In this document: piece after piece, positions 6,957 through 62,655 of the stretch
Numbering within the stretch: the stretch's first letter is position 1
Layout of the letters: each line of letters opens with the position of its first letter
Virus record (IMG/VR): IMGVR_UViG_3300017991_000003
Location: 32,001-96,000 of that record
Strand: one strand, 5' to 3'
Source: a virus
Length of the DNA stretch: 64,000 nt
The notes under the pieces: generated by a model
Seen by the model: the letters and a program-made list of their open reading frames with translations, nothing else
Database searches by the model: none
What the model was told of the DNA's origin: nothing
Program-made: the position numbers and the translations under genes

Positions 6957-9900
6957 ATGGCCCTCGAAAATCTCCGTCCCGATCTCAAGATCGAGCAGAA
7001 GTTCGTGACGGCGGCGCCGCTGGTGCCCGCGTCCTCGCTGCCCGTGGTGCTAGTCGGGCTCAACCGCGACCTTCGCTATCGGCAGCTGACCGACATTAGC
7101 GCCTGGAACGGCGGCGCCTCGGTCTCTGATGTTGACTTCCCCGGTTGGCTTGGCGGTGCCGTTGAGGACACGGACCAGACCGATACGTACCTGCGGCCTG
7201 TCGTCGAGGTCTACCACGACACCTACGGGTGGGCGGCCATCACGGACGACGTGACCTTCAAGAACATGGCGACCGCCCCGGCGATGGACATCGCCTCGGG
7301 TGTCGACGCGGTGTTCGAGGTCGCATCTGGCACGACCGGAGCCTTCGCTGTGGACACCAGCGCCCCGGCGGCTAGTGCCTTTACCGACGCCAACGCGGAC
7401 TTCATCGATGACCAGGTGGCAGCTGGGGACGTCATCAAGGTCGATGGGATCGCCACCTACGAGGTCAACTCTCTAGGCCTTGTGAGCGACACCGAGCTCG
7501 AGGTGCGCCGCATGGACAAGGGTCCCGGCACGGCGGGGGCGGCCGAAGCGGCCAAGATCTTCGTCAGCGCGGAGGACACCAACGACGTTCGCACCCTCTA
7601 CAACACCTCGACGGGGTTCACCGCTGCGGGCGGCTTCACCTCCTCGGGTGTGGCTGTGGGCGATCTGGTCCGCCTAGATCACTGGAACATCGTCAGCCAG
7701 GGCTCAGGCATCACCTTCGAGGCGGTGGGCGCGGATACCACGACTGCGAACAACGCCGGCGACACCGCGAGCGCGACCGAGCGCGTCGTGACGCTGCCGA
7801 CCGCTGACGCGCTTACGGCCTGGGACAACACCACTTACACCGGTGGTGTCTTCTTCACGGCCAACGCAGACGGCGACCTGATGCCGGCTTTCTACCTGAG
7901 CCACGCTGTGGCGGGCCCTGAGACTGTGGCCATCGCCACCGACTACGGCTCCAACCACCTGGTGGATACTGAAGACGCGGACTTCGGTGTGAAGTTCCAG
8001 TTGTTCGACTACGTCTATCGCACGGCCAGCGCCAGCACCACGGGTGCTTTCACCGCTGAGAACGCTGACGGCTATCGGACCTTCACCGACTCCTCGGTCA
8101 CGACCTTCAACGGCAGCCCGACTACTGTTCAGCTCGGCGATCACATCGCTATCAAGGACGAGGATGGGATCTACCGCCCGGTCTTCCAGGTCATCGGCTT
8201 TGGTGACGCGGGTAGCCCGGCCAGCGAGAGCCCGGATACGGACGCCACTCTGGCGGTCCAGCAGTTCGGTGACATCCTCGGCTCGGCGGTCTTTGCCTCC
8301 AACGTCGACTATGTGATCCTCGGAGCCGAGGTCGAGCAGGAGTACCTGGGCGCGACCATCTCGGCCGAGAACGCCGACGCCTACGGTGCTACGACCCGCC
8401 TGCTTGAGGCGACCGGTGAGGACTTCAACGCCGATGGCGTGACCGCTGGCGATCTGGTCTTCAGCGACTCTGGCACCCTGATGTTCATCGTGGTGCAGGT
8501 GGGTGACACCGTGAGCCCGCTGACCTACGACACCCTCGTGGTCGTGGATCACCCCAACGCCGGTACTACTCTCGGGACGACCGATACGATCGCTGAGTTC
8601 GGCTACAGCGTCCGCACCTCGGCTCGCTCTGACTTCCAAGTCAAGCGAGTGGTCGACGCGGACACGCTCGAGATCACCGCGCTCTCGACGACCCCGAACG
8701 TGATTCCGGGGACTCGCTCGATCCGCGGCGCTATCTACTTCCAGACGGCTCCCAGCATTGCGGCCAGCCCCGACGAGCTAGGTACCAACCCCGTGCTGGT
8801 GACTGCTGGCGACTCCGACAGCGCCATCAACTACACCATCGAGAAGACCCTGAGCGGGGCCTCTCTCGAGGGCGATGTCTATGTCACCTACGCGGAGATC
8901 CTGAACACGAACAGCGCTTCGCTGCTCAGCTTCAACTCCTCGACCGTCACGGACGTTCTGGGCGACGCGGTCCCGGGTAACCCGCTGGGTCTGGCTGGCG
9001 CCATCGCTGCCCAGAACACCGATGCGACCATGTACGCGATCCAGGTGACCGCGGACACCTCGGCTGCGTGGCAGACGGCTCTCGAGGTCGCCAAGACCGA
9101 CACGGTCTACAGCCTCGTGCCGCTGACCCAGAACGACACGTACCTGACGCTCTTCCAGAGCCACGTGACCACGCAGAGCCTGCCCGACAACAAGCGTGAG
9201 CGGATCCTCTGGCAGTCCAAGTGGTTCAAGACCCAAGTCGACCGCACGTCCTATGACTCCTCGGTGGACACGTCCAACGCCACGGTCAGCCGATCGGCGC
9301 TCGGTGTTCAGACCCTGACGGTCTACAAGGACGTCGTGGCCCTTGGGGTCATCATCGGTGACGAGGTCACCATGACGACCTTCAACGGCACTTCCGAGGT
9401 CTCGGTCTCCGGCCGGATCACGGACATCGACAACACGACGCCGGCCCAACCGGTCCTGACGATGGTGGCGGACGGCAACGTCCCGCTCTCGACCACGGAT
9501 CTGACGGTTCTGACCTACGACATCAAGTCGAAGAGTCTGTCTCAGACGGAGCTGGCCACGTCGGTCACGACCTACCTCACGGCCCTCAGCGAGCGCCGCG
9601 TCCGCAACATCTTCCCCAGCCGCTATCAGGTGACCTTCACCGACACGACGGGGATCTACGACTCGGGCCTCGGCGATGTCGAGGATTACGAGGTCGGTGG
9701 TGAGTACGTCGGAGCCATCATGGCAGCGCTGCGTCAGGCTCGCGGGCCGGCCCAGCCGCTGACCAAGGTTGCCGGCTCGGGTATCCAGCTCGTGATCGAC
9801 CCCTTCAGCGACTCGGTGACTCTGCAAGACCAGATCATCGATGGCGGCGGCTTCTACATCGAGCAGCCGGCTGGTGAAGGCGGTTCGGTCCAGGCGATCC

Positions 9901-10214
9901 GCGCCCTGACCACGGACGTTACGACCCTGACCTTCGCCGAAGAGTCGGTGACGAGCCAGGCTGACAACTTCGCCCGGAAGCTCCGCGGCGCTTTGAAGCC
10001 TATCCTCGGTCCCTACATCCTGGATGAGGGCTTCTACACGCTGGTCAGCACCATCGCCTCCGGCGTGGTCAACAGCGTGGTTCCCGACGAACTGAAGGAC
10101 GCCCTGCTCCTCTCGATCACCGAAGACGAGACCGCGGCCGACAGCTTCATCATGGAGTACAAGATCGACGTCTGGTTCTCCGGTGCCCGCGGCACGATCA
10201 CCATCTACATCTAG
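6957..10214 (+). CDS. Large beta-rich virion structural protein (candidate tail sheath)
   Basis: 1085-aa ORF, Thr/Ser/Asp/Gly-rich with repeated small GD-x-V beta-like segments; followed by a tube-sized gene; product by context only. Confidence 0.6.
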   Translation: MALENLRPDLKIEQKFVTAAPLVPASSLPVVLVGLNRDLRYRQLTDISAWNGGASVSDVDFPGWLGGAVEDTDQTDTYLRPVVEVYHDTYGWAAITDDVTFKNMATAPAMDIASGVDAVFEVASGTTGAFAVDTSAPAASAFTDANADFIDDQVAAGDVIKVDGIATYEVNSLGLVSDTELEVRRMDKGPGTAGAAEAAKIFVSAEDTNDVRTLYNTSTGFTAAGGFTSSGVAVGDLVRLDHWNIVSQGSGITFEAVGADTTTANNAGDTASATERVVTLPTADALTAWDNTTYTGGVFFTANADGDLMPAFYLSHAVAGPETVAIATDYGSNHLVDTEDADFGVKFQLFDYVYRTASASTTGAFTAENADGYRTFTDSSVTTFNGSPTTVQLGDHIAIKDEDGIYRPVFQVIGFGDAGSPASESPDTDATLAVQQFGDILGSAVFASNVDYVILGAEVEQEYLGATISAENADAYGATTRLLEATGEDFNADGVTAGDLVFSDSGTLMFIVVQVGDTVSPLTYDTLVVVDHPNAGTTLGTTDTIAEFGYSVRTSARSDFQVKRVVDADTLEITALSTTPNVIPGTRSIRGAIYFQTAPSIAASPDELGTNPVLVTAGDSDSAINYTIEKTLSGASLEGDVYVTYAEILNTNSASLLSFNSSTVTDVLGDAVPGNPLGLAGAIAAQNTDATMYAIQVTADTSAAWQTALEVAKTDTVYSLVPLTQNDTYLTLFQSHVTTQSLPDNKRERILWQSKWFKTQVDRTSYDSSVDTSNATVSRSALGVQTLTVYKDVVALGVIIGDEVTMTTFNGTSEVSVSGRITDIDNTTPAQPVLTMVADGNVPLSTTDLTVLTYDIKSKSLSQTELATSVTTYLTALSERRVRNIFPSRYQVTFTDTTGIYDSGLGDVEDYEVGGEYVGAIMAALRQARGPAQPLTKVAGSGIQLVIDPFSDSVTLQDQIIDGGGFYIEQPAGEGGSVQAIRALTTDVTTLTFAEESVTSQADNFARKLRGALKPILGPYILDEGFYTLVSTIASGVVNSVVPDELKDALLLSITEDETAADSFIMEYKIDVWFSGARGTITIYI

Positions 10215-23379: not shown

Positions 23380-23396
23380 GGCATTGGTAGGGGGTG

Positions 23397-23804
23397 TCAG
23401 TAAACAGTGGTCAGGATCGGGGTAGCCATCGACAAGTCAAAGACCCAGGTCATCTCCAGGTACCGGTGCTTGGCCATAGGTCTTCCGTGATGGTTGTGCT
23501 GCGCAGGCTTGGTCTGTTCAACAGCCTCCAGAGCCGTTCGGCAAAGCCAGGTATGGAGCCCCTCATTCGTCTCTTCGTCGCGGTGCTTGAGGAACACGTC
23601 AAGGCAGCGGATCGATGCTCGATCCACCGCGTGGGCGGTGACTTCAAGGCTTGTGGCCTGCATCAACATGCCGCGCCGCTTCAGTTCTTCAGCAGCGTCT
23701 TTCGCTTGATCGTGCTCTACACGCACCATCCAGCGCAGGTACCCAGGCGGTACACGTGTGATCGGCTCACCTGTATGTTTTCCGCGTTGCATCACAACCG
23801 CCAT
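23397..23804 (-). CDS. Hypothetical protein
   Basis: 135-aa ORF. Confidence 0.5.
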   Translation of the reverse strand: MAVVMQRGKHTGEPITRVPPGYLRWMVRVEHDQAKDAAEELKRRGMLMQATSLEVTAHAVDRASIRCLDVFLKHRDEETNEGLHTWLCRTALEAVEQTKPAQHNHHGRPMAKHRYLEMTWVFDLSMATPILTTVY

Positions 23805-24046
23805 GGCTCACAGCCCTCCTCGTCGGCCAGGAGACGCGCTAGCGCCTCGTCCTTGGTGTAATCCTTTGGCCACTCTCTGACTTCCACTGTAGGGTTGCGG
23901 AGACCGGCGCTAAGGCTTTGAAGATCCTTCCCCAGCCGGCGGAGGACCCCATCGAAGAGGTCCTCCTCTGGCTCGAGGAAGATGCGGGGAAGTTCGATGT
24001 AGGAGTCGAACCCCTCTGCACAGACTCGGACGTCAATACCCCTCAC
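23792..24046 (-). CDS. Hypothetical small protein
   Basis: 84-aa ORF. Confidence 0.4.
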   Translation of the reverse strand: MRGIDVRVCAEGFDSYIELPRIFLEPEEDLFDGVLRRLGKDLQSLSAGLRNPTVEVREWPKDYTKDEALARLLADEEGCEPWRL

Positions 24047-24929
24047 AGCCCTACTGGGAGGACAGTAAGCGGGTGATCGACGCGGAATCTAGCCGGTATC
24101 CCCCTAGTGGTGTCCTCCGTAGGGGTAGTCCGGGTCGGGGTGCGCCAGCGTCTGGTAGCGTATCTACTCACCATATGATGGTGTTCCAGTAGGCAGATCC
24201 CCGAGCTACCTCGGGTATTGGCAAGTTGGGCCATCCGCGTACTGATGCTCCGGGCCCACTGTCTGGCGTAGTACGCATTGGTAGTGTGGCCTAGAGGAGC
24301 ATACGCACTCGGCCACTCCCACCCGATCCAGGAAGCTGCATGGTTGGGCAGCTTGATGCTCACTCGAGGAATATTGCGGGCCTCCTCAGACCAGCGGCGT
24401 CGGTGATAGGAGAGGTCCGTAACACCAATACTCCCATCAGGTACCAACGCGTTCATGAGCTCTCTTGGAGAGTACCACGCAGCGTTGGTTGCATACGCCC
24501 AGGCCGCGTACGGGTGGGCGGCGTAACGAAAGTACCTCCGCAACGCCATCCGCACCCCCTGCTTCGACGCCAGATCACCTGCCCGCACATTTGGTACTCG
24601 AATAGCTGGGATCAACCCGCGAACTTGATCGAGCGGAAATAGCGTGTCAGGCCGGAACAGTACCGGGATTGCCACGCACCACACGCTCAAAGACTTGCAT
24701 GACACTGAGCTGCGCTTGGAGTAGAAGGCATAGATGACGCGCCACTGGAAGTTGGGAAATGTCATCTCCCACGACAGCTTCCCATAGCGCCCGGGAGGGG
24801 ATGTGGGGTCGATGTGAGGCCGCTGCGTGCGGCCTCGGCAGCGGTAGCGTGCGTACATGAGCGACCGATCGTTTGGGCCTGACCACAGCATCTGCATCGC
24901 CGCAGCACGCCGCGCCTCCCACGTCATGC
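24043..24929 (-). CDS. Hypothetical Trp/Arg/Tyr-rich protein (start uncertain)
   Basis: Only long ORF in this interval; wobble GC only about 65 percent; start set at internal Met downstream of the UvrD-like gene stop. Confidence 0.35.
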
Positions 24930-25024
24930 CGGCTGGGTTGTTGTTCAAGAAGCGCGACGCGGCTTCGGTCAGTCGATGATCTGCGACGTCGAAAGGAAAG
25001 CGGTCGGTGAGTGGGTCGAAGTCC

Positions 25025-26971
25025 CTAGCCGTGGCCGACTTCGTCGCCTGGAACCCGTAGACCGCCGCCCTTAGTCGCCAGGTCTCCGGGGGTCCGATCC
25101 TTGTCTTGAGTGATTTCGGCATCCTCGTTCTCCATATTGATGGCTTGAGGTTCAACACCCATCTCCTTGAGGAAAGGGCTGTCGATGTCGTATGTGGTGG
25201 TGTAGAGGTGGTTGATGGCGCGGGTAATCGCCACATAGGCGAGTCTCCGCTCCTCATCCTCACGGCCGTTCTTGTGTGGAATGAGCCCATCACAGAACCC
25301 GGCGATGAAGACAGTGGGGAACTCGAGTCCCTTGGCCCGGTGAATCGTGAGCAGCTGCACACGGGACCGGCCATCTTGGCGAGACTTGCTCTCCTGCTCG
25401 ACGAGATTGACGTGGGTCAGGAACTCCTTGATCGTGCGGAAGCGCGGCAAGGTCTGCATTAGTACCCGAGACACGGCATCCATCATCTCGTCAGGATCCT
25501 TGCGCTGGTTGCGGGCAGCCAGTTCACGAATGAACCCAGCAAAGCCGAGGCTCTGCCAGATGTGGTGGCCGATGTTGGCCGGCGTGTGACCCTCCTTGAC
25601 CAACATGTCCAGGTCCTGGAGGAGCGTACACAGAGATCCCGCGGCCTGCTGTTGCCGGAACCCTCCCCGCGTAGCTGCCATGACTTGCATGACAGATGCG
25701 GCAGAGCCGTCCGACTTGCCCATGCACTCAGCCACCCAGTCCCGACGCAGAAACCGGTTGGGCTTGTTGAGCACCCACCGCAGCGACGTGATGTCGTTCG
25801 GGCGGGCTGCTAGCCGAAGGTAGCTGACCAGGGTGCGGATCTCGGTACGACCGTAGAACCCGCCTTGATCATCGATGACCTCATAGGGGATCTTCCGCAT
25901 GCTGAGCTCATCCTCGAATGCGCCTGACTGGGCGTTCGTTCGATAGAGCACCGCGATGTCAGAGGCCATACCTCCGGCATCAAGGATCTCCTCGATCCGA
26001 TCGGCCGTGTACTGCGCCTCCTCGACAGGATGCTTCACACGGACCGAGGTGATAGCGCCCTCGCCTGTGAGCGTCGGTCGGAGGACCTTGTCCACTCGCA
26101 GGTCGTTGCACTTGATCAGCTGGTTAGCCGCGTCAAGGATCGGCGCCTGAGACCGGAAGTTCTCTTCCATCGAGATGGCAACCCCTCCGTAGATCTCAGG
26201 GAACTCGATGATGAAACGCGGGGAGCATCCCCGGAACCCATACACCGACTGATCATCGTCACCGACGACCACGAGGTTGCCTTTCTCGAGCTTCTTCAGG
26301 ATCTCGGCCTGCGCCGGGTCAGTGTCCTGGAACTCATCGACCAGGATGTGATCCAGTCGATTCTTGAGCACGTCGACCAGTTCCGGGTCATCTCGGAAGA
26401 GCTGCAAGCAGTCGATGATCATGTCATCGAACAGGTACTTCCCGTTCTTCACGATCGACTGATGGAGCGCATGCAGGAGCTCGACATACCCCGGGCCTAG
26501 GTTCATATGCGCGTGAATGCGGTCAGTCATCGCAAGCCACGCGTCGGGGTGAAACCCGTTGAGCTTGAGCAGGCTGATGTCCCGCAGCATGTCGGCAGGG
26601 ACGCCAACGGCGTTCGGGGTTTCTCTGAGCAGCTCCTCGGCCCACTTGATGAGCAACCACTCCTCCCGACCCTCCACGACTTCGCGGTTTTGGTACTGGT
26701 TCGGGCAGCGGCGATTGAGAACCTTGAAGCAGAAGCTGTGGAAGGTGCCAATGAAGCTGCTGGGGGTGAGGGGCACCCCCACACGCTTGTTGAGACTCTC
26801 TGCCGCCTTCTTACTGAAGGTCAGCACCAACTGGCTCTCGCCAGCCTCGGCATGCTTACGAATGCGCTCGACCAGGACGGTCGTCTTGCCGCTGCCGGCC
26901 ACGGCGAAGATAACGAGGTTCGAGCCCTCGTGATCAATCGCCTTCTTCTGCGCCGCTGTGAAGGAGGTCAA
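25025..26971 (-). CDS. UvrD/Rep-family (SF1) DNA helicase
   Basis: N-terminal AAQKKAI...FAVAGSGKTT Walker A in UvrD-like context; 648 aa. Confidence 0.85.
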   Translation of the reverse strand: MTSFTAAQKKAIDHEGSNLVIFAVAGSGKTTVLVERIRKHAEAGESQLVLTFSKKAAESLNKRVGVPLTPSSFIGTFHSFCFKVLNRRCPNQYQNREVVEGREEWLLIKWAEELLRETPNAVGVPADMLRDISLLKLNGFHPDAWLAMTDRIHAHMNLGPGYVELLHALHQSIVKNGKYLFDDMIIDCLQLFRDDPELVDVLKNRLDHILVDEFQDTDPAQAEILKKLEKGNLVVVGDDDQSVYGFRGCSPRFIIEFPEIYGGVAISMEENFRSQAPILDAANQLIKCNDLRVDKVLRPTLTGEGAITSVRVKHPVEEAQYTADRIEEILDAGGMASDIAVLYRTNAQSGAFEDELSMRKIPYEVIDDQGGFYGRTEIRTLVSYLRLAARPNDITSLRWVLNKPNRFLRRDWVAECMGKSDGSAASVMQVMAATRGGFRQQQAAGSLCTLLQDLDMLVKEGHTPANIGHHIWQSLGFAGFIRELAARNQRKDPDEMMDAVSRVLMQTLPRFRTIKEFLTHVNLVEQESKSRQDGRSRVQLLTIHRAKGLEFPTVFIAGFCDGLIPHKNGREDEERRLAYVAITRAINHLYTTTYDIDSPFLKEMGVEPQAINMENEDAEITQDKDRTPGDLATKGGGLRVPGDEVGHG

Positions 26972-31841: not shown

Positions 31842-32302
31842 CTGTTGGTGTTCGGGGGGTTGATGTTGTCACACTGCTCACAGGTCCAGGTGGCGCCGGC
31901 AGGTACTTCCCCCTCAGCCTTGCGGATCTCTTCGATCTCCTTGCGGAAGGCCTCCTCGTCAGCGGCCCACCACTGGCCGGGCGCCTGCCCGTCGAGCTGG
32001 AGGTATCCCATGATCTGGACGCCCTCGCTCAGGTAGCGCTTGATCACCGCCCGCCGGGCCTTGGATTGCATCTCACCCGGGACCAGGATTCCGAAGGTCA
32101 GAAGCGCCCGGTAAGCCTCGTTGAGATGATCGTAGAGCGCTGCCCTGATATTGCTGTGCTCGGTTCGAGCGGCATCACCTAGCCGCTGATTGCGGCTGAC
32201 ATGGGCGAGGGCGTAGTCCAGCGCTACGATGCGAGACTCGCAGTCCTTGATGCGCTCGAGGCAGGTGCTGAAAGCCTGCTCGATGATTGGTGTGTCGGTC
32301 AT
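31811..32302 (-). CDS. Hypothetical zinc-ribbon protein
   Basis: Start set at internal Met giving ATGA overlap with the upstream gene stop; C-terminal CEQCDNINPPNTNRCVNCQ. Confidence 0.5.
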   Translation of the reverse strand: MTDTPIIEQAFSTCLERIKDCESRIVALDYALAHVSRNQRLGDAARTEHSNIRAALYDHLNEAYRALLTFGILVPGEMQSKARRAVIKRYLSEGVQIMGYLQLDGQAPGQWWAADEEAFRKEIEEIRKAEGEVPAGATWTCEQCDNINPPNTNRCVNCQEAFA

Positions 32303-50198: not shown

Positions 50199-51593
50199 CT
50201 AGTAGGCAGCCTGACCACCGCTGCTCGCCATGTCCTGGACAGGGCCGAGCTGCGCGAACCGCATGTCGTAGAGATCCCATTGAACACGATAGGGTTGGTC
50301 GACCGCACCGTCTCGGACCTTGCCGAGCTTCATGTCGATGACGCGGGCGTTGTTACCGGCATCCTTCGGCGGTACCAGGAAGACGAGGTTGTTGGAGTCG
50401 TGCGAGATGCTCTGGCTGAAAGCCACAGCATCAGCGTTCGACCGGGCCAGCGTGCCTTCATTTCGGCGCAGCTGCGTGGCCAGCATGTAGTGACGGTTGG
50501 ACATCAGCGTATGCAGACGCATCTGCCGCATGTTGCCCTCCACCTTCTGCCAGCGCTCCTTACCAGGGCCCTCCATGTAGTAGAAGCCGTCGATCAAGAC
50601 CAGGTCCGCGCCAAACTCCTCAGCCTGTGCGGCAACCTGATCAGGAGTCGTAGCCTGGTTAGGGCCCACGATGCGCAGGTTCTCACCAACGCGAGCGTGC
50701 GGCCCGTCTGCTTTCAGGCTACGCAATGCCTCGAAGTAGGCCGCCTTCTCCACGTCACTTAGCTTCTGCTTCATGAGGCGGTTGAAGCTAGTGCTCGAGA
50801 GCACCGCGGCTTGGCGTCGAGCCACATCGATGGGTGCCATCTCCAGACTGACGATCAAGACCCGAGCGCGGGCGGCGTCCTTCTGCTCCTGCGTCCACGC
50901 CGGGATGTCGGGTGGGCGGTGGAAGATGTAGGGATCTCCCAGGAGGCCGGCGGCACTGTTGAGCACGATGAACCAAGTCTTGCCGAGGCCGGTAGGAGCC
51001 ACACAGCTGGTGATCTGCGCAGGGTGCCAGCCCCCAAGCTGTTCCTGAATGAACAGGAACGGACAAGGGATGCCGAGCTTCACGCCGGCCAGCCGATCGT
51101 TGTAGTCCTGCTCGAGATCCTCAGCGTACTCTCGGAAGTCCTTGATCTCCGTCTTGTGTGCCGAGTACCTAGCTTGCAACGTATGAGCGTACAAGGACAT
51201 CGCGTCCTTGATGTCGAACGGGTCGGTGCGCTCGGTCAGCTGCTTGTGAAGATCCTGAAGGCTCTCTAGCACATCTACACGCACCGCCTCCTTAGCGACT
51301 TCGTCGTAGAGAACCGAGATGCTCGCTTCCGGGATCTCAGTACCAGCCAAGATCGTGGGAAGCTCAGGCCAGGCGCGCTGCGCCGTGTCAGGCGTAGGAA
51401 GCTCGTTGTACTGTGCTCGGTACCCGACGACCCACTCGATGATCTCCGTCATCGGCTCTTGAAAGAACCCGGGGTTGAGTCCGTTCTTGGCGACGTGGTG
51501 GTCGAAGGCGGCTAGGTTCCGGTCACTCAGGATCTTGGTCAGGAAGAGAGCCTCGACCCTGTCTCGAGAGTTGACGTTGGTGAACCCGGTCAC
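50199..51593 (-). CDS. DnaB-like replicative DNA helicase
   Basis: Walker A APTGLGKT, SLEM motif VLIVSLEM, LVLIDGFYYM and LATQLRRNEG segments. Confidence 0.75.
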   Translation of the reverse strand: MTGFTNVNSRDRVEALFLTKILSDRNLAAFDHHVAKNGLNPGFFQEPMTEIIEWVVGYRAQYNELPTPDTAQRAWPELPTILAGTEIPEASISVLYDEVAKEAVRVDVLESLQDLHKQLTERTDPFDIKDAMSLYAHTLQARYSAHKTEIKDFREYAEDLEQDYNDRLAGVKLGIPCPFLFIQEQLGGWHPAQITSCVAPTGLGKTWFIVLNSAAGLLGDPYIFHRPPDIPAWTQEQKDAARARVLIVSLEMAPIDVARRQAAVLSSTSFNRLMKQKLSDVEKAAYFEALRSLKADGPHARVGENLRIVGPNQATTPDQVAAQAEEFGADLVLIDGFYYMEGPGKERWQKVEGNMRQMRLHTLMSNRHYMLATQLRRNEGTLARSNADAVAFSQSISHDSNNLVFLVPPKDAGNNARVIDMKLGKVRDGAVDQPYRVQWDLYDMRFAQLGPVQDMASSGGQAAY

Positions 51594-53980: not shown

Positions 53981-55402
53981 TCAAGGGTTGGGGATGCCTC
54001 GGCGAGCGGCTGTGTACAGCGTGTCGAAGGCCTCGCCCCGGAGCTTGTAGGACGCCATGATGACGTCGCCTTTCCCGGTCGGAGGTGTCTTGTAGGACCT
54101 GAGAGCCTTGACGGCCAGCTCGAGGACCTCGGGCTCGTCGACCCACTCAGGGTAGATGTCCAGGACGCCGTTACGGATCATCGCGTCATGATCCTCGGTC
54201 GAGACAGGAGCGGCGTTGATGTACTCCATGTCGGACATCACGTGGTTGCGCAGCCAGGGGAAGATGTTGTTCCAGGCGGCGGTCCAGTAGGCAGGGATGA
54301 AACCGACGTCTTGGCACCTCTGAGGGCGCATGAAGTCCTTCCAGTCCCGGATCCAGACCTTCAGGAAGACGGCCTGCTGCTGGTTGGTCCTGATCCCCGA
54401 GCTGGCTAGGAGCTCGCGGAACTGGTTCATGATCTGGGTCGTACGGGCGATGGAGTGGGCTAGGCGACCGTTGGGGAGGGTCTCGTTGAACAGGCACTTG
54501 ATCCCTGAGGCCTTACAGGCTGCTCGGATCATGCGGACGAAGTCCATGGACTTCCAGCGATCGACGTGGGAGAGGTCGAGGGGATCGACTCGCTCAGCCG
54601 GCTTGGGGTGGGCTGGGTCCTCCTGAGGGGCCCTGTACTTGGACAGGGTCTGCTTGGACTTCTTCTTGACCCGGTCATCCTGACGGGCCTTCTCCTCGCT
54701 GTAGGCGGACCCACTGGTCACGTCTTGGATGCGCTTCTTCGGGGCCCTATCCCTTCGGGTCATATCCCCCTCCTGAGGGCTTGGCGGGTCCTCCCGCCTC
54801 GACGAGGAATGCGAAGCATTCCGAGGAGAGTCAGAGTCCTTGTAGGACTCTTCCTCGTAAGGGCGGAAGCCGGCTTCACCCTGCTGGCGGCCCCTAGAAG
54901 CGGGGTCACCCCCCGCCGCGGCCACGGTACCGGCCTTGGCCGCCTCCGGGCAGTGCTCCTGTACCCAGGGGTCGTCTCGGTACCTGGCCCACAGTGCTCG
55001 CCAGCACCTGTGGGTGATCGTTCGGGGCCGGAGCTTGACCACTAGGTCCAGCGTGATCGGGACCGGCACGAGCAGGCTCGAGGCCCGGACGCGGTGGGTC
55101 CGATGAAGCAGGCCCACCTCCACAAGCCGGTTCAGGATCGTACGGATCTGCCGGCTCGACAGGTCGCAGACGTCTCCGAGCACACGCGCGGACGCCGAGC
55201 AGATCCCGTTACTGGACGCCTCCGCGAAGGAGACCACCTCCTGATAGACAAAAACCTCGGTCTTGGTGAGGACCGAGGAGCGTCTGACAGCCTTGGACAT
55301 CCGGTCGTAGCCGGAGACCTCCGGGGAGGGGGGCAAAATAATCGCATTTCCCTTAGCAGAAGGGACTTGCGTTCTACCAGTCTCGTGTCCTAGACTACTC
55401 AT
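53981..55402 (-). CDS. Helix-turn-helix domain protein (candidate replication initiator or regulator)
   Basis: N-terminal winged-helix-like segment (SSRQIRTILNRLVEVGLLHR); 473 aa. Confidence 0.55.
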   Translation of the reverse strand: MSSLGHETGRTQVPSAKGNAIILPPSPEVSGYDRMSKAVRRSSVLTKTEVFVYQEVVSFAEASSNGICSASARVLGDVCDLSSRQIRTILNRLVEVGLLHRTHRVRASSLLVPVPITLDLVVKLRPRTITHRCWRALWARYRDDPWVQEHCPEAAKAGTVAAAGGDPASRGRQQGEAGFRPYEEESYKDSDSPRNASHSSSRREDPPSPQEGDMTRRDRAPKKRIQDVTSGSAYSEEKARQDDRVKKKSKQTLSKYRAPQEDPAHPKPAERVDPLDLSHVDRWKSMDFVRMIRAACKASGIKCLFNETLPNGRLAHSIARTTQIMNQFRELLASSGIRTNQQQAVFLKVWIRDWKDFMRPQRCQDVGFIPAYWTAAWNNIFPWLRNHVMSDMEYINAAPVSTEDHDAMIRNGVLDIYPEWVDEPEVLELAVKALRSYKTPPTGKGDVIMASYKLRGEAFDTLYTAARRGIPNP

Positions 55403-56193: not shown

Positions 56194-56900
56194 GGCTTGG
56201 TCAGGGTCAGGATGGTGATCATGTAAGGCGTGCGCAGGAGTAGGTACTTGTCCTGGACTGCCCATAGCACGGGGCTCTTGCCTAGGAGGATCAGGCACTG
56301 GCGGAGCTTGGTGACGTTGACGGCCGGGTAACGGCGCTCACCCGAGATGGGGTACTCAGTCGGCTCGGCTCGAAGACCCTGCTGTGGGCAGATCTCCATG
56401 AACTGGTAGTTCAGGGCTGACTGATGTGCTCGCGATTGCGGGATGACACCCAGCGGGTCTCCGGTCACGCGCTTGAAGGCTGCGGAACGAGCAGCCAGTT
56501 GCTGCATCAGATCTGCGTGCGGGTAGTCAGGGCCGGCCTTCACTGGCGCAGCCCTCGGGGTGTCGAGCTGCGTGCTGCTGTAGATCGTGGTGACGGTCAT
56601 GTTGCAGACCATTCGATCTAGCGGCCAGTCCTCGACCCAGGTCAGCTCTTTGGTGATCGAGGGGTGCAGTTGGTAGAGCAGGCGGCCTCGACCGCGTGCT
56701 AGGTAAGGGCGCTTCCACGCAGCCAACCGGTGCGAGCCTTCGACCCGTTGAGGTGTTTGGTACTCCGCAAAGGGGCCGGCCGGTTCTGTCGGTTCTGCGG
56801 CTTTTCGAGGCTGCTCCAGGTGGGTCAGCAGGGTAAGGACTCGCGCCTGATCACCCGCGCTCAGGGCCTCGATACGCTCAGCGATGGTCTTGTCGGTCAC
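56190..56900 (-). CDS. Hypothetical protein
   Basis: GTG start at 56898-56900 preceded by AAGGAG 7 nt upstream; track ORF extends further into non-coding sequence. Confidence 0.5.
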   Translation of the reverse strand: MTDKTIAERIEALSAGDQARVLTLLTHLEQPRKAAEPTEPAGPFAEYQTPQRVEGSHRLAAWKRPYLARGRGRLLYQLHPSITKELTWVEDWPLDRMVCNMTVTTIYSSTQLDTPRAAPVKAGPDYPHADLMQQLAARSAAFKRVTGDPLGVIPQSRAHQSALNYQFMEICPQQGLRAEPTEYPISGERRYPAVNVTKLRQCLILLGKSPVLWAVQDKYLLLRTPYMITILTLTKP

Positions 56901-57127
56901 TAAAAAGCTCCTTGGTGAATCAACCGGAGCAGAGCTCCGGAGGTGAAAGGTGCCCCACCCGCCGAGAGGCGAGTGGGGCGGTTGCCAGGATGCACACGAA
57001 CTACTGGAGTGGTGGACCTGAGCTGAGCCGGAGTATGGCACCGGATCGAGCCGGATTCAGTGACTGCGTATAGCTCGTTGGGTTTGTCTACCTCGTGGAT
57101 GAGCTCGGAGTCACGACTCGAGCGGAG

Positions 57128-57289
57128 TCGCCTGCCTCGAGCTCATTGTTGCCATCATCTCGTCTGGTTGATGAGATGGCGGCGGCTCCTCCTCTCCTGT
57201 TATCCTGCGCTTACAGTATTCTCGGTGCCCGAGCTCGACCCATCTCGTCAACCTGACGCGATGATGGCAACAATGAGCTCGAGGCAGGC
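57128..57289. repeat. 31-bp perfect inverted repeat pair separated by 100 nt
   Basis: 57128-57158 is the exact reverse complement of 57259-57289, verified base by base. Confidence 0.9.
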
Positions 57290-57438
57290 GCCGCAGCGAG
57301 AGGCGCCGTGGCTCAGCCTCGTGGTGGGCAAACCCACGAGTTATTCGCAGACACTGAAGCCGGCCCGGTTGACATGCTCTGGCTCAGCTCAGGGTCTACC
57401 CGTAGGTGCAAGTGTGGCCGAGGTTGCTGTTGCGCTAT

Positions 57439-57457
57439 CTGCGGCGATGCGCCGCAG
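57439..57457 (+). repeat. Hairpin motif copy 1 (CTGCGGCG-ATG-CGCCGCAG)
   Basis: 8-bp stem, 3-nt loop; shares core GGCGATGCGCCGC with two other copies. Confidence 0.8.
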
Positions 57458-57785
57458 GACCCTCAAGTCAAGAGGGAATAGCTCTTCGTGTGCGGGGATT
57501 CCAAGGCAAGAGCCTGGATGGGCGCGCAGAGCATGATCCCGGTCGTGGAGGCGTGCCCGAGCTTTGTACGCGACCCGGTTCGGGTCGAGGATAAAGCGAA
57601 GGACCAGCACGCTGTAACGATCCGTGGATTATGCTCCGCGCTGTCCCAGCCAGCGCTTCGTTGGTAGTGGGAGGCGCCTCCGCTAGGAGGCGACGTCCTC
57701 GAGTTGCGCTACTGAAGCGACCACACATGCTGGCATGTGTAGCTTCAGGTGCGCAGTGCTCGAGGCCCACGACCAGTCGTACAGT

Positions 57786-57802
57786 GGCGGCGATGCGCCG
57801 CC
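57786..57802 (+). repeat. Hairpin motif copy 2 (GGCGGCG-ATG-CGCCGCC)
   Basis: 7-bp stem, 3-nt loop; same core. Confidence 0.8.
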
Positions 57803-58040
57803 TGAAGACGTTGTGGATTAGGCCTCCGGTAGGCCCGTTCCAGTCTTTCTACTCCCTTGGAAAGGTAGTCACCTCTTGCGAGGCTGGCTGGCTACCTTGG
57901 TATCGGCGCTCGTAGAGACTACCCGGTCACACGCCCGCCGGAGGCGGGCTTGTGGACGCGTGGTCTCAACGTAATGTGTCACAGGAGACAGCTCGAGGCG
58001 CAGCTCGAGCGGGCCTCCGGCCACAGTTTCTATCACTTGA

Positions 58041-58053
58041 CGGCGATGCGCCG
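58041..58053 (+). repeat. Hairpin motif copy 3 (CGGCG-ATG-CGCCG)
   Basis: 5-bp stem, 3-nt loop; same core. Confidence 0.75.
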
Positions 58054-58265
58054 CCGCGGAAGTCAGATGGGCTAGCTAGACCACTTCTTTCCTTGCTCCG
58101 CCGAAGATGTACCTGTTGGCAGCCCTGGTACTGGGCTTTTGGCTATGAAGAACGGATCATCGGGGCCAACTACCCTCCTGCTCTTCGTGCCTGTTGGTAC
58201 CGGCCTTTGGCCGGCAGCCGAGCCTGCTCCGGATTATGTGGAGCAGACTCGGTTCACTTGGTGCG

Positions 58266-58733
58266 CTAGCCGCGCTCCTTGACGGGGACCTTCATGATGA
58301 GGACGTCGCCCTCCTTGAGGGTCATCCCGTCGGTCACCTCCTGGCCGCCGATGTGCGGCTTCGACCCCTCGGGGGTGCCGAAGCGGCGAGCGTACTCGGT
58401 CCGCGCGTCGGCGACCGAGGTGCCGGCGGCGACGTTGAGGCGGCCGGGCTCGCCCAGACCGTCGGTGGCCGCGGCGGTGACCGTGGCGACCGGACCCGCC
58501 TGCGGGGTCTCCTGGGTCGTCGGCGCCGTCGTGGCGGTGGGAGCGGTGCGCGTCACGGCGACGGCCACCTCGGTGTCCGTGGGCAGACCCGTGGTCTGGT
58601 CCCACTTGGTCGGATCCGAGTGGTCGACCTCGTAGAGCACGGGGTTGCCGGCCGCGTCGTTCGCGGGGGAGTCGGCGTAGCGGATGCGACGGTTGAGGGT
58701 GTCGAACGCGGGGCGCTTGATGTTTCCGGTCAT
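58266..58733 (-). CDS. Beta-grasp (ThiS/MoaD/ubiquitin-like) domain protein with N-terminal extension
   Basis: C-terminal ~60 aa (GRLNVAAGTSVADARTEYARRFG...TLKEGDVLIMKVPVKERG) matches the ThiS/MoaD pattern by eye; ends in a single Gly; no clear ribosome-binding site. Confidence 0.5.
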   Translation of the reverse strand: MTGNIKRPAFDTLNRRIRYADSPANDAAGNPVLYEVDHSDPTKWDQTTGLPTDTEVAVAVTRTAPTATTAPTTQETPQAGPVATVTAAATDGLGEPGRLNVAAGTSVADARTEYARRFGTPEGSKPHIGGQEVTDGMTLKEGDVLIMKVPVKERG

Positions 58734-59495: not shown

Positions 59496-61394
59496 TCAGG
59501 GGTAGATGGGGAGGGTGGCTTCTGTTTCGGACTTGTTGCAGAAGGCGATCTCCTCGAGGAGGACATCGTCTTCCATGTCGTCGGGGTCCTCGAGGACTCC
59601 GTCCATCTCGAGCACCAGTCGATCCATCTGATCGAGGATCTCTTGGTAGTCCTTGCGGTAGGGAATGCCGGCGTTCTGGGCCGCCTTGCGGACGACAAAG
59701 TAGGTCAGCCGGAACCACTCGAGCAGGACGCCGTCGGAGTCCTCTCGCGAGAATGCCTCGACGTAGCTCAGGTTGGTCTCGATCACGGTCTCGATCACGG
59801 TGTCGATCGACGTCTCGGGGAACACAGTTTTCACCGTCGGGTCGGCGTAGACGTATTTCGAGAGCTTGTCGATCCGGGCATCCAGTGCGATCGACTTGAA
59901 TAGCCGGTCGAGAAGGTCGTCGATGCGATTCATCACCTCGTCGATGACGTCTCGAACCAGCATGCTGTAGAGGGTCTGACGACTCTCGGATGCGCTGTTC
60001 TGCGCTTCTTCGACGATCTCTTCGATCGTGGGGGCGTTATCGAACCACTCACTGGTCGAGGCGTGGTTCATGAGCAGATGCAGGGCTAGGGCCGTAGCGT
60101 TGCTCGACGTCAGACTGTCCTTGAACGAGGTGCAGTACGCCCACACGGCTCGTGGGAAGGTCGTTTGCTGACCCTCCGCCTTCTTGATCAGCTGAAGGGG
60201 GTAGTGCGCTTGCGGTGAGATCACCATGCCGTAGAAGCCGGTGTGCATCCGCTGGATGCGGAACTTCTTATCAGCGACCAGCGAAGGGCCAGAGGCTGTC
60301 TTGCTGACAGGTACCAGTGAGGTAGTCGTCTTCTTCGTCGTCTGGCCAAGGCCACCCTGCGCCCCCGTACCCCCAGTCTTGCCGCCAGGAGTCGAAGGCG
60401 TACCCGCTTTGCCGCCGGTCCACTTTTTCGAGCCATAGCCGCCATACCTGCTGGTCTTGGCTTTCTTCTCCGCCTCCTTGATGGCCTCGCTGGCCAACTT
60501 GAACGTGGTAAGACAACGGGCGGCCTCGCCCATCCTGTCCTTCCAACGCCCCAGGCTTTCCATCGACCCACAGAAGGTCATCACAGTGCTCGTGTCGACG
60601 TCCTCGAGCTTGTCGACGCTGAGACCGACGGCGAGCTCGTCGGGATCGACCCCGGCCTTCAGCATGGCTTCGCACAGTCCGGGGTGGGCGACCCGGTTCA
60701 GCCACAGCTGAATCAGATCCAGGCCGCCCTCCACGAAAGGGATGTCGAACAACTCCTCGAGACCGGTCGCGTGGCGGATGCCCTGCGCCTTCTCGTTGCG
60801 GTAGCCGGGGAGGGCGGTGACGAACGACGGGCACACCGAGAAGGGCGGCTTGTCCACGTTCCCGAAGGTGATGTGGAAGCCCGTCTGGTTGAGCTCGTTG
60901 GCGTCGTCGGTCGAGCTGTGGTAGGCTCCACCAGCGCCGTGACTGTGCGCGGTGCCGACGCAGATGAACTCGACAAGCTCTCCATCCTCGCAGATGGGGC
61001 AAGCGTTGCCGGCTTCGAGCTCGATCGAGCCGATGCGACAGGTCGTGCAGAAGCTCTTGACGTTGGGATCGTACTTCACGTGCCCCGCGGAGGCGGTGTA
61101 CCACGGCGGACTGACGAGGGTGTAGGCGTCGTCGACCGGCCCTCGGTGGAAGAGCACGAAGGCCTCGGTCTTCCACAGGCGGTAGACCTCGGCGAAGTAG
61201 CGGTAGACGAACATCGTCTCCGCCATGGAGATCTTGGGCCAGTTGGTGAGGTCCAGGTCACGCTGGATCTGGTCGGTTTCACCGAGGTCCTCGGCCCGGG
61301 CGGGAACGAAGGCCTGAGCCCAGGCGGCCCCGCCTGGGCCGATGGTCTTCAGCACGTGGGCTTGGTTGCCCTTGTAGTAGATGTCGGTGGTCAT
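59496..61394 (-). CDS. JAB/JAMM metallopeptidase-domain protein with zinc ribbon and large C-terminal domain
   Basis: Exact JAMM signature HSHGAGGAYHSSTDD preceded by CTTC...CPIC; GC3-rich codons checked across the gene; start at internal Met giving ATGA overlap with upstream gene. Confidence 0.7.
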   Translation of the reverse strand: MTTDIYYKGNQAHVLKTIGPGGAAWAQAFVPARAEDLGETDQIQRDLDLTNWPKISMAETMFVYRYFAEVYRLWKTEAFVLFHRGPVDDAYTLVSPPWYTASAGHVKYDPNVKSFCTTCRIGSIELEAGNACPICEDGELVEFICVGTAHSHGAGGAYHSSTDDANELNQTGFHITFGNVDKPPFSVCPSFVTALPGYRNEKAQGIRHATGLEELFDIPFVEGGLDLIQLWLNRVAHPGLCEAMLKAGVDPDELAVGLSVDKLEDVDTSTVMTFCGSMESLGRWKDRMGEAARCLTTFKLASEAIKEAEKKAKTSRYGGYGSKKWTGGKAGTPSTPGGKTGGTGAQGGLGQTTKKTTTSLVPVSKTASGPSLVADKKFRIQRMHTGFYGMVISPQAHYPLQLIKKAEGQQTTFPRAVWAYCTSFKDSLTSSNATALALHLLMNHASTSEWFDNAPTIEEIVEEAQNSASESRQTLYSMLVRDVIDEVMNRIDDLLDRLFKSIALDARIDKLSKYVYADPTVKTVFPETSIDTVIETVIETNLSYVEAFSREDSDGVLLEWFRLTYFVVRKAAQNAGIPYRKDYQEILDQMDRLVLEMDGVLEDPDDMEDDVLLEEIAFCNKSETEATLPIYP

Positions 61395-61816
61395 GTGGTG
61401 ATCAGGGGTGGGTGGAATCGACGTAGGACGGTCAAGACCGCCTGGGTGTCTTCGTTGATGTCTTGCTCGGCTAGTAGGTGATCGAGCCGGCGCATCCAAT
61501 CACGTAGGGTCGTGAGCTGCTCGGGGCCCATGCTCGCCGGAGGGTCGACGACAGGACGTCGGTCGCTCTCGTCTCGGATCAAGTTGAAGCGGATGTTGTT
61601 GATCCTTCCACCGTCTAGCGCAACTGGATAGGTGCGTTGGAAGATCTGACCAAGAGCCTCGATCATCTCTCGAGTAAGACCCGTCCCCTCAAGATCGAGA
61701 AGGTGCGGTCGGTTCTCGAGGATCCGAGATAGAAGCTCCTCGCGTCTCCGGATAATGGCCTGGTGATCATTGTGTCGATCACGCGCGCCTTGCACGGTGT
61801 CCAGAATGGTGGTCAT
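61391..61816 (-). CDS. Hypothetical protein (operon member)
   Basis: 141 aa; ATGA overlaps at both ends (61813-61816 and 61391-61394). Confidence 0.55.
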   Translation of the reverse strand: MTTILDTVQGARDRHNDHQAIIRRREELLSRILENRPHLLDLEGTGLTREMIEALGQIFQRTYPVALDGGRINNIRFNLIRDESDRRPVVDPPASMGPEQLTTLRDWMRRLDHLLAEQDINEDTQAVLTVLRRFHPPLITT

Positions 61817-62655
61817 CGGACCACCTCTCGCCACTTCTCGGCCGCCGTACCGAGCTCCCGGCCCAGTACGATCTCATCGACGTCCGTCTGCCAGGTCATG
61901 ATGCGATCCTCGGTCCAGCGCTGCCATCGACAGAACTGCCAGAGCATGACAGTGTTCATGTTCAGGCCCAGATCACGCCGCCTGTCGTAGTCGGTGTAGT
62001 CACCTTCGGGGAGTTGCTCGAAGTACGGGACCTCTCGAAGCGCTTCGGGAACCTCAAACCCCTCAGGGAGCGGCCCGCTGAAAGGTGGCATGGTCAGGGA
62101 GTGCTCGTAGTGCGCGTTGTAGCCGGACTCGTTGATGAGCTTGAGGACCATCTCCGGGATCGACTGGAGCCCGTTGTACCGGTACTGGCGGAACACAGCA
62201 CCCGTGCACATGCCTCCCGTATCTTGCTGGTTCGGTAGGAATGATTTGTACAGAACCGGGGTGTACCCCGCCTCCAGATGCGGCTGCTGCTTGGTGAAGA
62301 AGCAGCGGGCATCGGAGAGGCGCCCGTCGTAGATCGAGATGATGAAGACGCGCGCAGGCATGGCGACCAGGAATCGAAGACCCTCCGGCCAGCCGCGGTT
62401 CTCGCGGACGTCGATGGAGATCCTCTCAGCCCGCGGAGGCACGACTGCCATGAAGTGCTCGTTGTGGGCATCCTTGGTGTGTGCCAGGATGTTTACGTAG
62501 GGGTGGTACGGAAAGAGGGCGCCAGCGCGCCGGCCTCGTTCCTCGAGGGCGGTCACGACGTCTTCTTCCCGCGTGATGCGGTTGACGTGAACCGTTTGAT
62601 GGATCACGTGACCATCGACGATGACGAGTCGATCGTGGGTTTCGAAGTTGGTCAT
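61813..62655 (-). CDS. Hypothetical protein (operon member, candidate effector)
   Basis: 280 aa; ATGA overlap with the RT stop at 62652-62655. Confidence 0.6.
   Translation of the reverse strand: MTNFETHDRLVIVDGHVIHQTVHVNRITREEDVVTALEERGRRAGALFPYHPYVNILAHTKDAHNEHFMAVVPPRAERISIDVRENRGWPEGLRFLVAMPARVFIISIYDGRLSDARCFFTKQQPHLEAGYTPVLYKSFLPNQQDTGGMCTGAVFRQYRYNGLQSIPEMVLKLINESGYNAHYEHSLTMPPFSGPLPEGFEVPEALREVPYFEQLPEGDYTDYDRRRDLGLNMNTVMLWQFCRWQRWTEDRIMTWQTDVDEIVLGRELGTAAEKWREVVR

Follow-up and report, generated by a model that had tools for sequence, protein, structure and literature searches.

A 31-bp perfect inverted repeat in a metagenomic phage of 175–193 kb is the core of an imperfect hairpin of about 380 nt, situated in a non-coding gap at the end of an operon encoding a retron-type reverse transcriptase (RT). 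The DNA analyzed is a stretch of 64,000 nucleotides (positions 32,001 to 96,000 of IMG/VR virus record IMGVR_UViG_3300017991_000003), referred to here as the window; coordinates are those of this window unless a related locus (L004, L008 and so on) is named. With a probability of roughly 0.55, the repeat forms the central part of an msd-like hairpin belonging to a retron-type non-coding RNA (ncRNA) at the 3' end of the phage operon. This reading, in which an operon transcript would be copied into complementary DNA (cDNA), is favored because a retron-type RT is the constant partner of the hairpin, the flanks are retron-like in the operon sense, transcription probably follows the operon strand and the hairpin is optimized in the complementary sense; it is the only reading that makes use of all the facts.

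The inverted repeat and the giant hairpin

The repeat, with its 100-nt spacer, had been described in a first-pass annotation as the longest perfect inverted repeat of the window, and so it is, the runner-up measuring only 15 bp; its coordinates, however, had to be shifted, as the register originally given fails a reverse-complement test and the +1 register fits. The small palindromes reported in the spacer are also present (CATCTC...GAGATG at 57156-57178 and CTCGG-TGC-CCGAG at 57221-57233). The perfect arms extend into arms of 66 nt with 86% complementarity (57114-57179 and 57240-57305), these are enclosed by an outer repeat (57017-57040 and 57370-57393), and a gapped self-alignment yields arms of 163 nt with 79% identity. 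No other inverted repeat detected by gapped self-alignment of the window approaches this size.

Folded as minus-strand RNA, the hairpin contains about 161 pairs; in the plus-strand sense it contains about 167, including 11 G-T wobbles. As minus-strand RNA, the segment 56990-57420 folds into a single hairpin (-248.9 kcal/mol, z = -17.8), and as plus-strand DNA the segment 57001-57484 reaches -173 kcal/mol (z = -18.4); neither energy was attained by any shuffled sequence. The giant hairpin is far outside chance expectation. It is present as a single copy in the window and in every locus fetched, the only match in IMG/VR to a 21-mer from the arm is the source contig, and the arms have the same sequence in the independent assemblies L001 and L014.

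A structure retained at the same site in related phages

Ten phage lineages with RTs that are 36–51% identical share the same gene order (RT, a protein of about 280 aa, one of about 140 aa, a JAB-like protein, ThiF, a ubiquitin-like (Ubl) protein, and then the gap), and in all of them the equivalent gap is non-coding, with a length of 0.5–2.3 kb. Six of the ten (the window, L004, L008, L013, L015 and L258) have a hairpin of 300–500 nt in this gap, with fold z values of -12 to -21. Comparisons of the lineages' hairpins by blastn revealed no sequence similarity, and their GC content ranges from 36% to 64%. Hairpins of unrelated sequence thus occupy an equivalent site, implying that the structure is conserved and the sequence is not. 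The check on relatives proposed in the first-pass annotation had a divided outcome: the primary sequence is kept in none of them, the hairpin persists as a structure at the equivalent position in six of the ten lineages, and the other four have hairpins of 75–105 nt instead. L258, the RT of which is 36% identical, has a 2.3-kb gap with a tRNA-Ala gene between its two giant hairpins.

The strand under selection

When a transition alters a Watson-Crick pair, one strand acquires a wobble, which is tolerated, and the other acquires an A-C mismatch, so the distribution of wobbles reveals which single strand selection acts on. The seven giant hairpins have 3, 1, 5, 2, 2, 4 and 4 wobble pairs in the operon sense (21 in total), versus 11, 18, 16, 13, 13, 14 and 11 in the complementary sense (96 in total), a difference with a binomial P of 2.5e-7 even with a null expectation of 0.6; both hairpins of L258 are biased toward the strand opposite the operon. 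The complementary strand of the hairpins folds better by 28–56 kcal/mol, as compared with 7–15 kcal/mol (standard deviation (sd) 15–18) for control windows from the same loci, and the wobble fraction differs between strands by a factor of 3–17 in the hairpins, versus 1.25 in the control windows. The GC and AT skews calculated from four-fold degenerate sites are opposite in direction, and simple strand-biased deamination does not, therefore, explain the wobble bias. These observations indicate that the molecule under selection has the plus-strand sequence of the window. Three molecules fit this description: a cDNA of the operon transcript, an antisense RNA, or the plus strand itself as single-stranded DNA.

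Architecture of the flanks

The flanks of the hairpin have the a1-msr-msd-a2 topology of retrons, provided that transcription follows the direction of the operon. In the window, a 9-bp closing stem brings together an a1-like and an a2-like arm (Table 1). A G at 57484, immediately after a1, is a candidate branching G, and another G, at 57001, stands just before a2, which is about 10 nt from the base of the hairpin. This 9-bp perfect complement was equaled in 45 of 5000 shuffles. Closing stems of 7–13 bp are found in five lineages (window, L004, L008, L013 and L015) and are placed asymmetrically around the hairpin: the helix table gives a 5' gap of 60–114 nt and a 3' gap of 1–5 nt for the window, L004, L013 and L015, and the layout is the same in the fold of L008. 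In these five lineages, the stretch from a1 to the long hairpin contains two short stem-loops, the designation 5' here assuming the inferred direction of transcription. When the longest complement between the 150 nt upstream and the 35 nt downstream was compared with that in shuffled flanks, the five lineages gave p values of 0.009, 0.031, 0.0006, 0.18 and 0.042 (Fisher combined 1.1e-5). The window, L008 and L015 have a G directly after a1 and an opposing G directly before a2, in keeping with mapped retrons, in which G is the most frequent branching nucleotide and also the most frequent first base to be reverse transcribed (bioRxiv 10.1101/2024.01.25.577267).

The second of the two stem-loops of the window, SL2, belongs to a recurrent form, with a GC-rich stem of 7–8 bp and a 3-nt loop (...GCG-NNN-CGC...), which is 3–9 times denser in the gaps than elsewhere at most loci, and an SL2-type hairpin precedes the long hairpin in related lineages too. 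The exact motif of the window (GGCGGCG-CAT-CGCCGCC) occurs in three copies, all of them in the gap (57439-57457, 57785-57803 and 58038-58056). Each copy is followed by a longer hairpin (about 380, 67 and 85 nt, respectively), which suggests an array of three units. The second unit (57645-57900) lies upstream of the giant-hairpin unit and contains a sequence block common to L004 (15594-15850), L007 (15488-15740) and L008 (9098-9330). This block reads C[AG]AGGTAGCCAGCC ... CAAGGGAGT ... CTCACAG and is followed by a GGCG-NNN-CGCC hairpin and then by the hairpin of about 67 nt. The unit matches no Rfam family, and it may serve as a second template for the RT or as an RNA to which the RT binds. A 17-nt hairpin, GCCCGCC-TCC-GGCGGGC, is identical in the window (57933-57949) and in L008 (9009-9025), the remainder of the gap having diverged.

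The gap is an RNA island. The gaps of L011, L013, L258 and L259 contain tRNA genes on the operon strand, and that of the window contains none. In L013, a2 ends 21 nt ahead of the start codon of the next gene, making operon-sense read-through very likely; this position of a2, together with the strand of the tRNA genes, argues for transcription of the gap from the operon strand. A scan of 56800-58400 on both strands detected no sigma-70-like promoter and no terminator.

The reverse transcriptase

The RT of the operon matches the PADLOC retron RT models (2e-44) and, at scores that are all below the curated cut-offs, the NCBIfam models retron_St85_RT (2e-38), group II (2e-10) and Drt2 (1e-4). All 13 of its sequence matches in the PDB are RNA-directed DNA polymerases, 12 of which are explicitly retron RTs or have a sequence in common with retron entries, and the best is Ec86 (2.7e-20). 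Retron RTs are recognized by an NAXXH motif in region X and a VTG triplet in RT7, or region Y (Mestre et al. 2020, PMC7736814). The phage enzyme has NAAPH (residues 95-99) and VCGVVVN, which correspond to the NAXXH and VTG regions, so that both hallmarks are present, and it also has YSDD; A96, H99 and G270 (in VCGVVVN) are invariant in the RT clade, and one relative has VTG. In sequence, the protein is nearer to retron RTs than to group II, diversity-generating retroelement (DGR) or UG/Abi RTs. No bacterial or archaeal RT more than 34% identical to it was found in the genomes of 185,579 species, and scans of metagenomes and genomes with the RT alignment added a single close relative, L094, of the L007 lineage. 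The gene immediately upstream of the RT gene is a coding gene, which leaves no ncRNA at the canonical retron position.

Proposed mechanism and its weaknesses

In the proposed mechanism, the operon transcript would extend through the gap, and the RT would bind the short stem-loops, prime from the 2'-OH of the G at 57484 and copy the RNA from 57001 toward about 57400. The product would be a single-stranded DNA of about 400 nt with the plus-strand sequence, folded into a hairpin of about 170 bp. Where the RNA template has A-C mismatches, read-through would be easier, and the corresponding positions of the product would be G-T wobbles. By analogy with retrons, the product DNA may bind and regulate the co-encoded Ubl, E1 and JAB proteins, possibly in the service of phage-versus-phage or phage-versus-host conflict. 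The "long msd-like stem" was one of several roles listed for the repeat in the first-pass annotation, and it is the one that fits best, because the operon encodes a retron-type RT, the a1/msr/a2 topology of the flanks is found in five lineages and the cDNA-sense strand is the one indicated by the wobble bias; no support was obtained for a packaging or recombination site, also on that list.

Several observations weigh against the retron-like reading. The multicopy single-stranded DNA (msDNA), its branch point and the transcript are all predictions. Between the RT stop codon and the candidate ncRNA, which is downstream on the same strand, there are about 5.2 kb and five open reading frames (ORFs); the ncRNA is not contiguous with the RT gene, at odds with the way in which retron cassettes are usually defined. 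The stem has about 160–230 pairs over the lineages, three to four times the described range for msd, the stem of which is given as 10–50 bp (PMC7736814). No Rfam match at the gathering score was obtained in the window, and no retron family matched 56800-58400 at E values of up to 5. L007/L094, L011, L012 and L257/L259 keep the operon with hairpins of only 75–105 nt, and closing stems could not be shown in these four lineages; the two opposing Gs are missing from L004 (AUG) and L013 (AAAG). As they consist of Watson-Crick pairs, the closing stems and short stem-loops would fold equally well in the antisense, and context is all that sets the direction of transcription. Background composition mildly favors the same strand as the wobbles, and the energy difference by itself exceeds the controls by only 0.75–2.9 sd. 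Finally, a crude control with 25 other retron-RT loci revealed no significant wobble bias in the cDNA sense (67 versus 84), so the bias is not an established signature of retrons.

Alternative explanations

In the first alternative, the hairpin would be a separate long RNA, transcribed antisense to the operon from the plus strand and unrelated to the RT, that could serve as an RNase III substrate, a double-stranded RNA decoy or a regulator. Such an RNA would have the plus-strand sense that the wobble bias of 96 versus 21 directly calls for, and it would lie in a gap rich in structured RNA and tRNA genes. Nevertheless, the flanking genes and the tRNA genes of the equivalent gaps are all on the operon strand, the segment 56800-58400 has no sigma-70-like promoter or terminator on either strand, and the 21 nt separating the L013 element from the next operon-strand gene leave no room for an antisense promoter outside coding sequence. 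An antisense RNA would also leave unexplained the constant link to an operon with a retron RT and the retron-like asymmetry of the flanks, and we consider it unlikely.

The same low likelihood is attributed to an element acting at the DNA level in replication, as an origin or a single-strand initiation or priming site, with the plus strand forming the hairpin when transiently single-stranded. A single-stranded DNA hairpin would likewise tolerate G-T wobbles on one strand only, and plasmid single-strand promoters, such as Frpo, are long hairpins of about 300 nt. An origin had been suggested in the first-pass annotation, and the gap does lie directly upstream of a replication module encoding an O-like initiator and a DnaB-like helicase, but nothing more specific supports this role: closely spaced iterons are lacking (distances of 253 and 346 nt separate the three copies of the 17-nt motif), the hairpin contains no promoter-like -35/-10 pair, and there is no dip in GC content or AT-rich region in the gap, the GC content of which remains at 0.61-0.65 throughout. 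Furthermore, the giant hairpin is missing from four lineages with the same replication genes and present twice in L258, and an origin offers no obvious role for the closing stem and asymmetric stem-loops.

Very improbable, finally, is a palindrome that is selfish or accidental and has no function itself (a miniature inverted-repeat transposable element (MITE)-like insertion, an inverted duplication or an assembly artefact), for although long imperfect palindromes are typical of miniature transposable elements and several contigs end in or near the gap (L011 and L095), the element is single-copy in the window with its arm sequence restricted to the phage's own IMG/VR contig, six lineages have unrelated sequences at the equivalent position, and mismatches strongly biased to wobbles on one strand imply a structure under selection.

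Also rejected were the following: an assembly artefact, because the arms are imperfect, the loop is structured and the sequence is identical in independent assemblies (L001 and L014); a protelomerase site, because the palindrome is imperfect and has a loop; a DGR template, because a pair of direct repeats is absent and the RT is of the retron type; and an intrinsic terminator, because the terminator scan of 56800-58400 was empty and the hairpin measures about 380 nt. As a separate observation, two assemblies break in the gap, L011 ending 919 nt past the Ubl gene and L095 about 400 nt short of the expected hairpin; these breaks could stem from difficulties of assemblers with long inverted repeats or from uneven coverage.

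Genomic setting

The phage-type proteins of the window include a DNA polymerase, a UvsX-like recombinase, helicases and a tail fibre. In DNA searches, neither the gap nor a 25-kb part of the window matched any of 50,697 phage records. The gap (56901-58265, 1.37 kb) is non-coding according to the GC content of third codon positions (GC3); it contains the hairpin at the end of the minus-strand operon, and the genes neighboring it are all on the minus strand. The genes of the operon overlap by 4 nt or are separated by 4–23 nt. In IMG/VR, neither the flanking 236-aa protein nor an alignment of the O-like initiator retrieved any contig other than the source, and relatives without the RT operon were not found.

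Table 1. Positions of the RNA features and genes discussed (window coordinates unless a locus is named).
Feature	Position	Strand	Basis or remark
Left arm, perfect 31-bp inverted repeat	57129-57159	.	Exact reverse complement of 57260-57290
Right arm, perfect 31-bp inverted repeat	57260-57290	.	Pairs exactly with 57129-57159
Giant imperfect hairpin, msd-like region, about 380 nt	57011-57400	-	Folds, self-alignment, strand asymmetry
a1-like 5' arm of closing stem, GCACACGAA	57485-57493	-	Helix table of minimum free energy fold
a2-like 3' arm of closing stem, UUCGUGUGC	56992-57000	-	Fold, helix table
SL1, CCCUC-UUGACUU-GAGGG, msr-like 5' region	57460-57476	-	Fold
SL2, CUGCGGCG-CAU-CGCCGCAG, 8-bp stem, 3-nt loop	57439-57457	-	Fold
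Second structured RNA unit	57645-57900	-	Alignments, folds; holds second SL2 copy (57785-57803) and 67-nt hairpin
Third SL2 copy, GGCGGCG-CAU-CGCCGUC	58038-58056	-	Followed by 85-nt hairpin 57937-58021
GC-rich hairpin downstream of a2, terminator-like, without U-tract	56952-56979	-	Fold; not called by terminator scan
Giant hairpin, L004	16076-16488		
Giant hairpin, L008	about 9606-10040		
Giant hairpin, L013	15500-16017		
Giant hairpin, L015	15916-16315		
Giant hairpins, L258 (two)	7225-7555 and 8005-8400		
tRNA genes (Ala, Gly, Ile, Leu) in gaps of relatives	L011 15796-15949; L013 15087-15160; L259 8163-8324	operon strand	
Retron-type RT, 367 aa	62652-63755	-	PADLOC, NCBIfam and PDB matches, motifs
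280-aa protein	61813-62655	-	Conserved in all related loci; start overlaps RT stop by 4 nt
141-aa protein	61391-61816	-	In conserved operon
632-aa protein, weak JAB (deubiquitinase-like metalloprotease) match	59496-61394	-	Pfam Prok-JAB 2.8e-5
ThiF/E1-like adenylyltransferase, 244 aa	58757-59491	-	Pfam ThiF 4.7e-14 (above cut-off)
155-aa protein, Ubl candidate	58266-58733	-	C-terminal 55 residues modelled as beta-grasp
O-like replication initiator	53981-55402		Weak PHROG matches, 9e-6
DnaB-like helicase	50199-51593		Downstream of gap

The terminator-like hairpin downstream of a2 contains a U-G pair in the operon sense. Among the operon proteins, the Prok-JAB match of the 632-aa protein falls just under the cut-off (24.4 bits versus 25), and the same family is recorded for its homologues in L011, L012, L013, L257 and L258. 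The ThiF protein also matches PRTRC_ThiF (9e-15, below the cut-off) and PADLOC E1-E2 (2e-8). The 155-aa protein has ...KERG as its last residues, and in a single-sequence model its C-terminal 55 residues resemble a ubiquitin-like beta-grasp domain (predicted local distance difference test (pLDDT) scores of 72–84 in the domain); the best Foldseek matches of the model are ubiquitin, SUMO and MoaD, all weak (E from 0.24). In L012, L257 and L259, the Ubl protein is encoded by a separate ORF of 56–78 aa. No E2 was recognized. Sequence searches of the PDB with the 280-, 632- and 155-aa proteins returned nothing meaningful, and a homology search with the 280-aa protein returned only the protein itself.

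Elsewhere in the window, a region at approximately 23380-25025 has no ORF with coding-type GC3 and is a possible second non-coding RNA island. Near 24210, on the minus strand, GAGGTAGCTCGG resembles the start of the conserved block of the 57645-57900 unit, and GGGGTTCGACTCC, in the same region, resembles a tRNA T-arm; ARAGORN calls no tRNA there.

Significance and comparison with known systems

A broader proposal can be made only tentatively: a large environmental phage clade may carry a new type of retron, with one RT, its template RNA or RNAs at the far end of the operon and hairpin DNAs of 300–500 nt, which would exceed every natural msDNA several-fold in length, acting with the Ubl, E1 and JAB proteins during infection. 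If this is true, then phages of the virulent type themselves use retrons, the size range of natural reverse-transcribed DNA grows about three-fold, and a retron is linked to ubiquitin-like conjugation for the first time. The RT and its RNA would then provide a naturally processive retron RT and a long-template scaffold, of relevance to retron genome editing, in which donor length is limiting. The wobble-pair strand test may be of more general help in determining whether a hairpin functions as the transcript or as its complement. Full-text searches of the literature yielded no report of a retron associated with genes for ThiF, JAB or ubiquitin-like proteins, none of a phage-encoded retron with a very long msd, and none of a ubiquitin-like module tied to a reverse transcriptase and a structured RNA island.

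The hairpin resembles the Frpo/ssi elements of conjugative plasmids in being several hundred nucleotides long and in that it would work on one specific DNA strand. However, those elements act on transferred single-stranded DNA and have -35/-10 boxes in the stem, whereas no such boxes were found here and the carrier is a double-stranded DNA phage. The protein module is similar to Bil, type II CBASS Cap2/Cap3 and PRTRC cassettes, in that genes for a ThiF-family E1, a JAB-like protein and a small, putative beta-grasp protein with a terminal Gly lie together, and the best NCBIfam matches are to PRTRC_ThiF and PRTRC_A, although these are weak and below the curated cut-offs. It differs from these systems in that no E2, ParB or CD-NTase was recognized.

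The retrons known to date are anti-phage systems of bacteria; their msDNA measures roughly 50–160 nt and their template is located beside the RT gene. Bacterial retrons thus differ from the phage system in the position of the ncRNA, which here lies about 5 kb downstream of the RT gene, at the end of the operon, and in the carrier, which is a large, apparently lytic phage rather than a bacterium or prophage. The phage loci may also have several units each, and no Rfam msr match was obtained. The Ubl/E1/JAB accessory set is not among the 13 types described, and ThiF does not occur in the classification of retrons (PMC7736814). Nevertheless, the phage system shares with bacterial retrons an RT bearing NAXXH and VTG-region motifs and most similar to retron RTs, accessory genes in the RT operon, and an RNA layout with complementary a1 and a2 ends, a G after a1, two short 5' stem-loops and a long hairpin abutting a2.
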